Shown: piece after piece, positions 206 through 1,217 of the stretch
How positions within the stretch are numbered: the stretch's first letter is position 1
How the letters are laid out: each line of letters starts with the position of its first letter
Sequence record: PV340571
Length of the DNA: 42,916 nt
Origin: Escherichia phage PhiR55_1
Direction: 5' to 3' (one strand)
The notes under the pieces: model-generated
What the model saw: only the letters and a program-made list of their open reading frames with translations
Database searches by the model: none
What the model was told of the DNA's origin: nothing
Program-made: the position numbers and the translations under genes

Positions 206-745
206 ATGAATCCGTTTAACGCCATTACTTTTGCTGCATTGTGCGGGCCTCTGGCTTGTCCTGCTGCTATGGCGCAGGAGTTCATCATCCAGCCAGCCCC
301 TGTGATTGCTAAACCTTTTGAGTACTCTCCTTCTGTTGAGGAATTCTCACGCAAAATGGAAGAGGGTAAGGAGATCTTGCAAAAGTTAACAATTGCAGCA
401 GATGACTACTATATCTGTTTGATTGATCTTAATAGCCAAGATGCTCGCGAGTTTGTTTCCAAAAACGGGACAGATACGACAGAGGCATGCGAAATGTTCC
501 TGCGTGCTTTTGAAGAAGAAGTGAAGCGTACAATTGAATCGCCTCTGCCTGAATTTATCAGGTCAGAACTGAAGGTTTACTGGCGTCATATTGCTAAAGC
601 TCGCTCATCTGTCACTCGCCTTAACAATTACATAAAGAGCATATTTAAAGAAACTGTTACTTTTAGCGGGCGCGCGGATCTTGCTGGAATTGCAGCACTA
701 GCTAGTCACACATCAAATAAGCTAAAATCGATGCAATTTCACTAA
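206..745 (+). CDS. Hypothetical 179-aa protein with hydrophobic N-terminus; putative partner or antitoxin of the downstream YafO-like gene
   Basis: ORF with GAGGT Shine-Dalgarno 5 nt upstream of ATG 206. N-terminus MNPFNAITFAALCGPLACPAAMA is signal-peptide-like but has no basic n-region. Ends 16 bp before the YafO-like ORF. No family recognised. Confidence 0.5.
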   Translation: MNPFNAITFAALCGPLACPAAMAQEFIIQPAPVIAKPFEYSPSVEEFSRKMEEGKEILQKLTIAADDYYICLIDLNSQDAREFVSKNGTDTTEACEMFLRAFEEEVKRTIESPLPEFIRSELKVYWRHIAKARSSVTRLNNYIKSIFKETVTFSGRADLAGIAALASHTSNKLKSMQFH

Positions 746-761
746 CCGATAGCGGACGACC

Positions 762-1196
762 ATGCATCTAGAAGTCTCTATTAATCCAGAAACTAGAGCT
801 GAATTTTTTGATGAAGTTTTTCTCAAATTCCCGGAGCTAGAGTCTTCTATCATTGATGATTTCAAGAGATACAAAGCAACCGGTGAGCTTCCGCATTATT
901 TCGGTAGGGACGTTGCGTATACTCAGCCTTATGGTGCTTTTCGGGCTGGGTTGATGCATATCCATCTTTGTCTACCGCCAAACAAGTTTCCCGAGAAACT
1001 TCCACAACCGGATAGGGTCTGCAAGAAAGGTGATCCTGATAATGATGCTTGTCTTGTGTATGTCCAAGGTGAGCTTTATGAGAATAAATATTCACTCATT
1101 GCTATTATGTATCCCGATGCACATGAAAAAGCAAGAAAACATGATGTGATGAGCTATCTGGCGCGAATTGCCCAGAATTATAAAGATGAAAACTAA
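762..1196 (+). CDS. YafO-family type II toxin-like protein (ribosome-dependent mRNA interferase family)
   Basis: Motifs FGRD, HIHL, LVYVQG and LIAIMYPDAHEKAR match, from memory, conserved blocks of E. coli YafO (FGRD, HIHL, LVYCQG, LIAILKPEPHKLAR). Followed directly by a strong terminator. Confidence 0.55.
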   Translation: MHLEVSINPETRAEFFDEVFLKFPELESSIIDDFKRYKATGELPHYFGRDVAYTQPYGAFRAGLMHIHLCLPPNKFPEKLPQPDRVCKKGDPDNDACLVYVQGELYENKYSLIAIMYPDAHEKARKHDVMSYLARIAQNYKDEN

Positions 1197-1217
1197 CCCG
1201 CCGAAGCGGGTTTTTTG
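1197..1217 (+). terminator. Rho-independent terminator between convergent genes
   Basis: CCCGC-cgaa-GCGGG stem-loop followed by TTTTTTGT; A-run on the 5' side suggests bidirectional use. Confidence 0.7.

Follow-up and report, generated by a model that had tools for sequence, protein, structure and literature searches.

Organization of the locus

The two genes described here lie in the lambdoid prophage PhiR40_1, which is integrated at dusA, and adjoin its dusA attachment site. In the window, namely the whole 42.9-kb stretch of DNA analyzed, they are located approximately 200 nt inside the left end of the prophage, beside a truncated dusA. ORF A is followed on the same strand by ORF B after a gap of 16 nt, and the two constitute a compact operon served by a promoter and a terminator of its own (Table 1). 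The genes from position 1223 onward are on the minus strand. Both reading frames, the terminator at the module end, the orientation opposite to that of the neighboring genes and the position at the prophage end had been proposed by an earlier inspection of the DNA letters alone (the sequence-only reading), and all were reproduced here. The same inspection had described the module as more AT-rich, which held only to a modest degree, as the GC content is 41-45% across the module versus approximately 45-52% over 1.4-3.6 kb. The intrinsic terminator was called on the opposite strand also, so that it can serve the convergent PrtN/Xis-like gene as well.

Table 1. Features of the ORF A-ORF B module, in window coordinates
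Feature	Position	Strand	Description
Sigma-70-type promoter	124..152	+	-35 TTGACC (124-129), 17-nt spacer, -10 TAGACT (147-152); from a consensus scan
Operator-like palindrome 1	134..147		ACAACCGCGGTTAT; inside the promoter spacer, abuts the -10; fits AYARC-N4-GYTRT
Operator-like palindrome 2	161..176		AATAGC-taag-GCTATT; directly downstream of the -10
Shine-Dalgarno sequence for ORF A	197..200	+	GAGG; GAGGTTGnnATG invariant in five aligned loci
ORF A	206..745	+	179 aa; orphan all-alpha partner of the toxin, presumed antitoxin/neutralizer
ORF A codons 1-33	206..304	+	Signal-peptide-like block MNPFNAITFAALCGPLACPAAMA↓QEFIIQPAPV
ORF B	762..1196	+	144 aa; YafO-family (RelE/BECR-fold) toxin
Intrinsic terminator	1195..1218		7-bp GC-rich stem with GAAG loop (stem-loop 1195-1212), then T-run

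ORF B belongs to the YafO toxin family

A profile search with the ORF B protein identified the Pfam family YafO_toxin (PF13957) with 76.5 bits (E 1.9e-21; gathering cut-off 25). The match spanned residues 35-141, corresponding to positions 1-100 of the 101 in the model, and the identity to YafO of K-12 was 36% over 117 aa. The score against the NCBIfam equivalog PRK09885, which defines orthology to K-12 YafO, was 75.8 bits and below the cut-off of 153, indicating that ORF B represents a paralogous subfamily of YafO. The predicted structure showed the RelE/HigB fold (pLDDT 95). The YafO sequence blocks noted earlier by eye were located at YFGRD (46-50), HIHL (66-69), LVYVQG (98-103) and LIAIMYPDAHEKAR (112-125), and in an alignment of 39 sequences they coincide with invariant columns (F47, G48, H66, I67, H68, L98, V99, Y100, G103, P118, A120 and H121). 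ORF B thus combines the RelE/BECR fold with the conserved FGRD, HIH, R..C, LVYxQG and P..H positions, and all YafO-invariant residues are retained.

The ORF B protein is not basic (pI 5.7). Profile searches against PADLOC-DB 2.0 gave no match and those for a DNA-binding domain found none, and no PDB chain was matched by sequence with the YafO members. The start codon of the toxin gene is GTG or TTG in 6 of 12 loci, and its translation signals are weak.

ORF A encodes an orphan helical protein

The initiation codon of ORF A is ATG, preceded by GAGG at a distance of 5 nt, and ATG is the start in all of the 12 loci. Searches of the protein against Pfam, NCBIfam and PADLOC models and PDB entries yielded no match; the sole one obtained was phrog_8416, which carries a function-less annotation, and the best score in PADLOC-DB 2.0 was at chance level (E 0.017). 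The family is rare, with 23 representatives among 1.84 billion proteins, and RefSeq and UniProt annotate the partner as 'hypothetical'. No similarity to K-12 YafN was detected by BLASTP (E 1.7), nor was there a match to the PhdYeFM Pfam model. These results agreed with the sequence-only reading, in which the partner had been regarded as unrecognizable and unlike YafN/YefM. No support was found for the label 'YafM antitoxin' in GenBank PV340560; yafM of K-12 is an unrelated gene, and the label seems to be a mistake for YafN, a protein that ORF A does not resemble either.

No DNA-binding domain of the RHH, HTH, Phd or AbrB type and no antitoxin domain was detectable in ORF A by profile and fold searches. 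When weak domain matches of 30 family members against Pfam were pooled for voting, each match was a singleton, and PDB searches with a profile of the family returned chance matches only. The AlphaFold2 model (pLDDT 78.9) contains helices at residues 6-24, 44-74, 77-87, 90-110, 116-146 and 159-174, of which the N-terminal one stands alone on a disordered linker (25-43) ahead of a helical bundle. The fold matches of this model were generic helical bundles only, and ORF A is not a known secreted protein. The mature part is acidic (pI 4.8-6.2), and the protein is approximately twice as long as a usual antitoxin.

The two genes are strictly linked and co-diverge

Directly behind a member of the ORF A family, co-oriented with it and separated by 3-21 nt, a YafO gene was found in all 17 distinct loci collected from E. 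coli, Phytobacter, Enterobacter, Pantoea, Yersinia, Photorhabdus, Providencia, Rahnella, Klebsiella, Gilliamella, Orbaceae and a Pseudomonas phage. The same order was seen in 34 of the 34 assessable loci of IMG/VR. Two adjacent co-directional genes, one of which belongs to a known toxin family, are hence kept as a pair, as is typical of toxin-antitoxin (TA) systems of type II. The contexts of the pair are unrelated to each other, including the att/xis end of a prophage, tail and baseplate clusters, lysis regions and plain chromosome, and it therefore moves as a unit.

The distance matrices of A and B were correlated (r 0.76, Mantel p ~2e-4). The divergence rate of A is roughly twice that of B; antitoxins usually evolve faster than their toxins. 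The tight adjacency survives even where identity has fallen to approximately 15% for A and 31% for B, and at the loci whose contig permitted checking, no intact gene was found beside a lost or visibly disrupted partner. Strict linkage and co-divergence are thus features of this pair. Among 5426 complete E. coli genomes, 49 (approximately 1%) carried the module at 99% identity or above, with both genes annotated in every listed row of the matches, and the module was also present in prophages of many Enterobacterales.

Candidate operators at the promoter

The hexamer positions of the promoter upstream of ORF A align in the homologous loci of Phytobacter, Enterobacter and Pantoea, and the terminator of the module is conserved as well. 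The motif AYARC-N4-GYTRT occurs twice in the window, both times at this promoter, and the family's upstream regions (2.2 kb in total) contained nine copies of its perfectly palindromic form, versus none in 111 kb of background. The half-sites of palindrome 2 co-vary, being ATAAC..GTTAT in Pantoea and Orbaceae and ATAGC..GCTAT in Phytobacter and Gilliamella. A hairpin in the 5' UTR was considered as another origin of this motif and rejected: the RNA folded no better than shuffled sequence (z 0.44), which favors a DNA site, the minimum-energy fold bypassed the palindrome, and in several loci the motif is within the untranscribed promoter spacer. The two palindromes bracketing the -10 are predicted as candidate operators, with a DNA-binding domain being undetected in A or B.

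None of the overlapping or third ORFs at the pair keeps its position across 12 loci, and no Rfam family was at or near threshold at the module. A repeat array of the type III style was not found; the only tandem repeat, a 10-bp unit present twice, precedes the promoter at 79-98. Both an RNA antitoxin (type I/III) and a concealed third gene were accordingly dismissed, leaving ORF A as the only candidate neutralizer.

The N-terminus of ORF A resembles a signal peptide and is highly constrained

The ORF A protein begins with 24 uncharged residues ending in AMA↓QE, which agreed with the signal-peptide-like hydrophobic N-terminus described from the sequence alone. When scored by our own rule-based script, not SignalP, for an h-region of 7-15 residues, a helix breaker and small residues at -3/-1, it showed the hydrophobic stretch AITFAALCGPLA, then P at -5 and AMA↓QE at 21-23. 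The layout of n-, h- and c-regions and the AxA site recur across the family, and the site [AVTG]-x-A is at positions 21-23 in most members. Highly diverged members keep small-x-small at this place, e.g. MKTTLSICAAALSMALSSPNVLA↓RE. K/R residues before the hydrophobic stretch are absent from the window protein and the near (E. coli) clade, and roughly half of the remoter members have between one and four of them there. The exception to the layout is the homolog on the Klebsiella phage-plasmid pJN2-26, the N-terminus of which is non-hydrophobic, so that export, if it occurs, would not be universal in the family.

Within ORF A, constraint is strongest at residues 1-33. The pN/pS ratio of this block was 0.06-0.27, compared with 0.22-0.44 for residues 46-179; pS was 0.5-0.9, except for 0.22 in the closest comparison (Phytobacter), and pN was 0.01-0.19. 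A constraint at the DNA level, such as an att site, an antisense gene or RNA, was rejected because third codon positions vary freely, with high pS and low pN, and the substitution pattern indicates that the constraint acts on the protein. The conservation runs approximately 10 residues beyond the predicted cleavage site, through QEFIxQPAPV. In the members from Photorhabdus, Providencia, Gilliamella and Pseudomonas, the block sequence is not conserved, although the toxin is 51-66% conserved in those loci; the hydrophobic stretch and small-x-small are retained.

Other types of N-terminal segment were examined. ORF A does not have the canonical lipobox of a lipoprotein, its Cys13 being mid-segment and replaced by Tyr, Ser or Ala in homologs, and the twin-arginine motif of a Tat substrate is absent from the sequence. 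A membrane anchor of N-out orientation, with the domain left in the cytoplasm, was disfavored, as homologs carry K/R before the hydrophobic stretch and the region after it is acidic. If the segment is a Sec signal peptide, the helical domain would by topology rules be periplasmic and so separated from the cytoplasmic toxin and DNA. Such an N-terminus, if functional, would be hard to square with a simple cytoplasmic antitoxin.

Interpretation of the module

The best reading of these data is a type II-like TA or abortive-infection cargo with a new antitoxin family, and the region 124-1218 is probably a self-contained two-gene cargo operon ('moron') encoding a type II-like TA pair. A TA or abortive-infection module with a novel partner was also what the sequence-only reading had suggested, and the comparative sequence analysis supports that suggestion; the two checks that could have overturned it, on the YafO match of ORF B and on the identity and linkage of ORF A, both turned out in its favor. 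The designation 'toxin-antitoxin or abortive infection' is one that we infer from the architecture, and the toxicity of ORF B, direct neutralization by ORF A, autoregulation, trigger and biological role are likewise proposed in the following scheme. ORF B would be a YafO-family, RelE-fold endoribonuclease that, when free, cuts mRNA and stops translation. ORF A, encoded upstream, would be the cognate neutralizer that binds the toxin directly, and it is expected to be in excess over ORF B owing to its GAGG and ATG as compared to the weak, often GTG/TTG, starts of the latter. Repression of the operon is probably exerted by A, in complex with B or by itself, via the two family-conserved palindromes. 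When synthesis of A stops, by phage-induced shut-off in a superinfected lysogen or by loss of the prophage, A would be lost and B freed, which may result in abortive infection or addiction. The conserved hydrophobic N-terminal peptide of A may serve in this scheme to export the protein, to tether it to the membrane or to bind the toxin. What counts against the explanation is that A has no recognizable DNA-binding or antitoxin domain, is about double the usual length and bears a Sec-like N-terminus family-wide, and also that ORF B is not basic and neither protein fits a PADLOC defense model. The literature searched yielded no experiment on this pair, and no paper in which the partner family, or a signal peptide on the partner of a YafO toxin, is described.

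We tentatively considered that ORF A is a genuine Sec substrate, a reading which we regard as possible but rather unlikely. The cytoplasmic precursor would bind and neutralize the toxin, and perhaps repress the promoter, while export by SecA/SecYEG, and not proteolysis by Lon/Clp, would continuously remove A from the cytoplasm at a rate set by the conserved charge-less signal peptide. Either the lability of the antitoxin would stem from this export, or export would bring the complex to the inner membrane, the site of phage DNA entry. The family-wide signal-peptide architecture, with small-x-small fixed at 21-23 even in highly diverged members, is consistent with this, as is the lone helix on a disordered linker in the AlphaFold2 model. 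Generic signal peptides are not known to be under stronger amino-acid constraint than the mature domain; the stronger constraint on the N-terminal block of ORF A than on its helical domain therefore suggests tuning, and the operator-like palindromes and the cytoplasmic location of the toxin speak for an additional role of A in the cytoplasm. On the other hand, such a system is without precedent, as a literature search on periplasmic antitoxins was empty, and the n-region without K/R in the E. coli clade, the conservation past the predicted cleavage site and the Klebsiella homolog all disagree with it. ORF A is thus a doubtful candidate for the first antitoxin that is a Sec substrate, with its precursor neutralizing the toxin and the export machinery removing it or tethering the complex at the membrane.

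The same N-terminus may instead be the part, a helix plus an extended strand, with which an otherwise ordinary type II antitoxin of the cytoplasm binds the toxin; its likeness to a signal peptide would then be coincidental, or the segment would be masked by the toxin. In the structures of RelB-RelE and HigA-HigB, neutralization is typically achieved by a short helix and strand; antitoxins of the RelE family typically act in this way, and such complexes were among the structure matches of the ORF B model. Residues 1-33 as the best-conserved block, with conservation continuing past the putative cleavage site, would fit such an interface, and a cytoplasmic location would suit the palindromes. However, the lack of conservation of the block sequence in the Photorhabdus, Providencia, Gilliamella and Pseudomonas members, where the toxin is still conserved, together with the retention of the hydrophobic stretch and small-x-small, points to selection for export and not for a fixed interface. 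A 20-residue apolar N-terminus of a cytoplasmic protein would also be expected to engage SRP or SecA, and we consider a purely toxin-binding role quite unlikely. It is highly improbable that the genes are co-transferred but functionally separate, with ORF A being a secreted or envelope protein that, for example, excludes superinfecting phage, and ORF B being a weakly expressed or conditionally active toxin needing no dedicated antitoxin, or one with its toxicity lost. Prophage cargo often encodes envelope proteins that block superinfection, such as Sim of P1, which needs its signal peptide, and the signal-like N-terminus of ORF A and the weak or non-ATG starts of ORF B would agree with this. 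Against it stand the adjacency of 3-21 nt maintained in highly diverged pairs, the co-divergence of A and B, the lack of loci with one gene intact beside a lost or disrupted partner where the contig permitted the check, and the presence of all YafO-invariant residues in ORF B.

Comparison with known systems

Of the RelE-superfamily toxins of E. coli, YafO is the one understood least, and its known partner is of the Phd type. YafN-YafO of K-12 is an experimentally confirmed TA pair (PMC2814082), and YafO toxins have already been noted to be paired with unclassified antitoxins as well as Phd (PMC3141249). The present module resembles the K-12 pair, encoded in the dinB operon, in that the toxin is in the same Pfam family and antitoxin precedes toxin with a short gap. 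In contrast, YafN is a 97-aa Phd/YefM-type protein to which the window partner, twice as long, all-alpha and with a signal-peptide-like N-terminus, is unrelated, and the K-12 operon is controlled by LexA whereas the window module is phage cargo with its own promoter. The absence of a detectable RHH, HTH, Phd or AbrB domain from the partner also distinguishes it from RelBE/HigBA (RelE/ParE, BECR) modules. The analysis thus defines a second, phage-borne YafO subfamily with an obligate orphan helical partner, an export-signal-like N-terminus and a conserved promoter palindrome. Two of the features were unanticipated, namely the signal-peptide-like N-terminus, family-wide and most constrained, and the recurrent AYARC-N4-GYTRT palindrome flanking the -10. 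If the partner is an antitoxin, it would represent a new antitoxin family missed by current TA and defense finders. If it is also exported, this would be a new route to antitoxin lability or a TA switch connected to the cell envelope, and were the Sec-substrate reading true, liberation of the toxin would be tied to continued protein synthesis and export, or else to what happens at the envelope during entry of phage DNA.

In TAC systems, the fate of the antitoxin is linked to the export machinery via a SecB-like chaperone, and a similar tie would exist here. TAC has a third gene and no signal peptide, whereas the window module has two genes and its Sec link is predicted only. E. coli HigB TAC acts in abortive infection (PMC11980606). 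ToxM is another module of the RelE superfamily for which a connection to the membrane or envelope is predicted; it is a BECR-fold toxin fused to a transmembrane domain, proposed to sense DNA crossing the inner membrane (Gerdes 2025, PMC11980606). In ToxM the toxin itself bears the membrane segment, while here the toxin is soluble and the partner bears the hydrophobic N-terminus. That article describes ToxM as possibly the first type II TA to be membrane-associated; the YafO/ORF A pair does not appear in it (PMC11980606).

The same two-gene family is represented by gp17-gp18 of Escherichia phage HK639, located between the tape-measure and minor tail genes and likewise uncharacterized ('hypothetical protein'). 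The gp17 protein is 26% identical to ORF A and was detected by the partner profile with E 1e-17; it has the C-terminal end ...GRFH and the hydrophobic segment AAIGLLMQQ. The product of gp18 is a YafO toxin approximately 44-45% identical to ORF B.

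Identification of the toxin and its partner

ORF B, the presumed toxin gene, had been assigned to the YafO family from its conserved blocks in the sequence-only reading. Indeed, its product scored 76.5 bits (E-value 1.9e-21; cut-off 25) on the Pfam model YafO_toxin (PF13957) and showed 36% identity over 117 residues to YafO of Escherichia coli K-12, sharing the blocks FGRD, HIHL, LVYxQG and LIAI..P..H..AR, the positions of which were invariant in an alignment of 39 clade members. The score on the NCBIfam YafO equivalog model was 75.8 bits, under the model's cut-off of 153. No PDB chain was matched by sequence, and the AlphaFold2 model was very confident (pLDDT 95.1, pTM 0.90). 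As the Pfam match, the shortfall on the equivalog model, the K-12 identity and the predicted structure indicate, ORF B is a YafO-family protein with the RelE/BECR fold, in a subfamily apart from the K-12 ortholog. Membership in this family, which has been reviewed (PMC11980606), suggests that ORF B would cut mRNA. YafNO is an experimentally confirmed toxin-antitoxin pair (PMC2814082).

The same reading had described the upstream ORF A as an unrecognised partner unlike YafN, and this was upheld: ORF A had no significant match in Pfam, NCBIfam or PADLOC and was unrelated to YafN. The sole match was phrog_8416, where no function is assigned, and public sources name the protein "hypothetical" or "uncharacterized". 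Neither a homology nor a literature basis was found for the label "YafM antitoxin" given to ORF A in the GenBank record of PhiR40_1 (PV340560.1 222-761, equal to 206-745 of the window), which could spread as a misannotation. The partner family is rare: a word-indexed search gave 22 clusters, and exhaustive profile searching of 1.84 billion proteins yielded 23 representatives. Further distant members, reached through their YafO neighbours, were found in Gilliamella, Orbaceae, phage HK639 (gp17), Pseudomonas phage YMC11/02/R656 and the Klebsiella phage-plasmid pJN2-26. The family motifs were E..LR..E, AKAR....RLN, FES.(I/V)D...L..LA and a C-terminal (F/L/Y)H. In P0001, the representative of the 136-member cluster that includes ORF A, residues 38-49 were PLSTLLLLRNSS, compared with PFEYSPSVEEFS in the window protein; the difference resembles the outcome of a compensated double frameshift within the disordered linker, which suggests that the linker sequence is dispensable.

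Conserved linkage of the two genes

In every locus examined, the partner-family gene was directly followed by a co-directional PF13957 gene, with a gap of 3-21 nt. These loci were those of the window, Phytobacter, Enterobacter, Pantoea (two loci), Yersinia, Photorhabdus, Gilliamella, Klebsiella oxytoca, Providencia, Rahnella and Orbaceae, the two most distant profile matches (P0080 and P0087), and HK639, YMC11/02/R656 and pJN2-26. In IMG/VR, a full-length YafO ORF was present 11-16 nt downstream in 34 of 35 loci, the exception being cut by a contig end. The pair was found beside att/xis, in the gap between the tail tube/chaperone and tape-measure genes, after the tape-measure gene, among baseplate genes, in the tail-fibre-lysis gap, downstream of the Q antiterminator, and in a non-phage chromosomal region (gntP/marC/asd). 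As the surrounding genes vary in this way, the pair appears to move as a cassette. The pairwise distances of A and B were correlated (r 0.76, Mantel p about 2e-4), with A diverging approximately twice as fast as B. The module was present at at least 99% identity in 49 of 5426 complete E. coli genomes, and both genes were annotated in every row among the matches listed. We found no third ORF with a kept position, no Rfam match and no type III-style RNA repeat array, the sole short tandem repeat being the 10-bp duplication upstream of the promoter. The earlier interpretation, a toxin-antitoxin or abortive-infection module with a novel partner, withstood both checks, as ORF B matches YafO and ORF A is linked to YafO genes; the finding is real.

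Several individual loci had features of their own. In Yersinia mollaretii (L007/L008, 1328-2176), a ParD-ParE pair and an extra ParD fragment were located directly upstream of the partner-YafO pair within a phage tail gene cluster, a site that looks like a hot spot for toxin-antitoxin or defence cargo. In HK639 (L022, 1220-2238), gp17-gp18 are flanked by the minor tail genes and by the tape-measure gene, which has a lipoprotein gene beside it; a terminator immediately after the pair is annotated in the record. The distant pair of pJN2-26 (L024, 874-1911) has a toxin of 31% identity and a 205-aa partner that keeps RGLEG and a C-terminal FSFH, with a polar, extended N-terminus replacing the hydrophobic segment.

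Constraint on the N-terminus of ORF A

The hydrophobic N-terminus, noted earlier as signal-peptide-like, was present and proved to be a strongly constrained family trait. Nearly all members had an uncharged stretch of 16-27 residues, with Pro or Gln following the hydrophobic core, and a small-x-small site, at 21-23 in most (AMA/QE, VMA/QE, ALA/EA, TLA/QG, GMA/QT, VLA/RE). Fully diverged members still kept this layout, as in Photorhabdus (MNLSLRSCLAVVLFGGVLSVPSFSA/G), Gilliamella (...AALFAFSSQA/DE) and Pseudomonas (MARTKVPFSKVAMLSLALSVSTSCA/Q). This is the anatomy of a putative cleavable Sec signal peptide, and the n-region lacked a basic residue in the E. coli-Pantoea-Serratia clade. The pJN2-26 homolog kept the C-terminal motifs and had a non-hydrophobic N-terminus.

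Residues 1-33 were the best-conserved part of ORF A in this clade. Third codon positions changed freely in the N-terminal DNA alignment, and Nei-Gojobori counts gave pN/pS of 0.06-0.27 for codons 2-32 versus 0.22-0.44 for codons 46-179, at pS of 0.5-0.9 in all comparisons except the closest (Phytobacter, 0.22). The free third positions and low pN/pS at substantial pS indicate that the constraint acts on the peptide and not on the DNA. It reached approximately 10 residues beyond the predicted cleavage site. Signal peptides ordinarily evolve faster than the mature protein they precede; the N-terminus of ORF A therefore appears to be doing something specific.

Promoter and candidate operator

The ORF A start was always ATG behind a conserved GAGG, while in 6 of 12 loci the start codon of ORF B was GTG or TTG, a bias that should yield more A than B. 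The palindrome AYARC-N4-GYTRT had only two matches in the whole 42.9-kb window, both at the module promoter. The upstream regions of the family, 2.2 kb in all, contained nine perfect palindromic versions, which came from 9 of 14 loci and spanned E. coli to Gilliamella and Orbaceae. There were none in 111 kb of flanking sequence, and the half-sites varied symmetrically (ATAGC/GCTAT, ATAAC/GTTAT, ACAAC/GTTGT). The 5' UTR RNA was not unusually structured (z 0.44), its best fold left the palindrome unused, and at several loci the motif was within the untranscribed spacer. The palindrome is therefore better read as a candidate DNA site bound by a symmetric dimer. No recognisable DNA-binding domain was present in ORF A or ORF B, and a conserved host factor may be the binder instead.

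Features at the left end of the window
Feature	Position	Strand	Remark
10-bp tandem duplication	79-98		TCTATTCATA x2, perfect; between att core and module promoter
Sigma-70-type promoter	TTGACC 124-129, TAGACT 147-152	+	17-nt spacer
Palindrome AYARC-N4-GYTRT, copy 1	134-147		operator-like; in promoter spacer, touching -10
Palindrome AYARC-N4-GYTRT, copy 2	162-175		operator-like; just downstream of -10
Shine-Dalgarno GAGG	5 nt ahead of ORF A ATG	+	
ORF A	206-745	+	179 aa
ORF B	762-1196	+	144 aa; 16 nt from ORF A
GC-rich stem-loop and T-run	1195-1212		
PrtN/Xis-like gene	1223-1522	-	convergent with ORF A-ORF B, as are the early-left genes beyond

Function of the pair

The gene anatomy, the family membership, the linkage and co-divergence of the two genes and the conserved signals were all observed. 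We consider that the pair probably constitutes a type II-like toxin-antitoxin module, for which we infer toxicity, binding, repression, lability and trigger as follows. ORF B would be a cytoplasmic mRNA-cleaving toxin, bound and neutralised by ORF A produced in excess, and the two palindromes would be the sites at which ORF A or the A-B complex represses the promoter. Once synthesis ceases, ORF A would be lost and ORF B would arrest translation; in the prophage context, such a loss could result in abortive infection or addiction. For the N-terminus, three sub-models were weighed. It is possible, with distinctly lower probability, that ORF A is a true Sec substrate whose precursor is the active antitoxin, export giving lability or membrane localisation. 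A signal-peptide anatomy would then be compatible with both a toxin in the cytoplasm and an operator at the promoter. No precedent for an export-coupled antitoxin was found in the literature searched. A cytoplasmic ORF A that binds the toxin with its N-terminal segment seems unlikely, as the layout survives although the sequence is replaced across members, and the strict adjacency and co-divergence of A and B make it very improbable that the two are functionally independent, neither acting on the other.

The closest characterised system to the proposed type II-like module is K-12 YafN-YafO, which has the same toxin family and gene order but differs in partner, regulation and genomic setting. 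Leplae et al. (2011; PMC3141249) reported YafO toxins paired with Phd and with unclassified "guilt-by-association" partners, none of them on phages, whereas the present pair is clearly phage-borne. HK639 gp17-gp18 belongs to the same pair family and is uncharacterised, and PADLOC has no model for ORF A or ORF B. The toxin-fused ToxM is regarded as the first possible membrane-associated type II system (Gerdes 2025; PMC11980606). The pair is a YafO/RelE-type module whose orphan partner family, with its signal-peptide-like N-terminus, is new.

Prophage setting

The window is a complete dusA-integrated lambdoid prophage, Escherichia phage PhiR40_1, and its positions 1-1400 were 100% identical to PV340560. 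In E. coli chromosomes, a 105-bp 5' fragment of dusA adjoins the left edge, the window starting at the end of the truncated dusA, and the pair sits 200 nt inside this edge. The GC content was 41-45% over the module versus approximately 45-52% over 1.4-3.6 kb, so the claimed AT-richness held mildly and not strongly; all other descriptive claims of the sequence-only reading were present in the sequence. The gene at 1223-1522, named "pyocin activator PrtN family protein" in RefSeq, shares its terminator with the pair and, as it adjoins att, is probably an excisionase or recombination directionality factor. A homolog occupied the equivalent position in the Phytobacter locus (L003).

Window 1 to about 65 was 97-98% identical to short stretches of E. 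coli phages mEp460, 1720a-02, Lys8385Vzw and SKA5, annotated in SKA5 as tRNA-dihydrouridine synthase, and is probably the dusA attachment-site core common to these phages. The phage record has a "hypothetical protein" at window -13 to 127 (record 3-143), overlapped in another reading frame by a 35-aa TTG ORF at 42-149 (+). Both occupy the stretch from att to the promoter, spanning the 10-bp repeat, and are unlikely to represent genuine genes. The repeat itself may be an arm-type recombinase site, an IHF site or a chance duplication.
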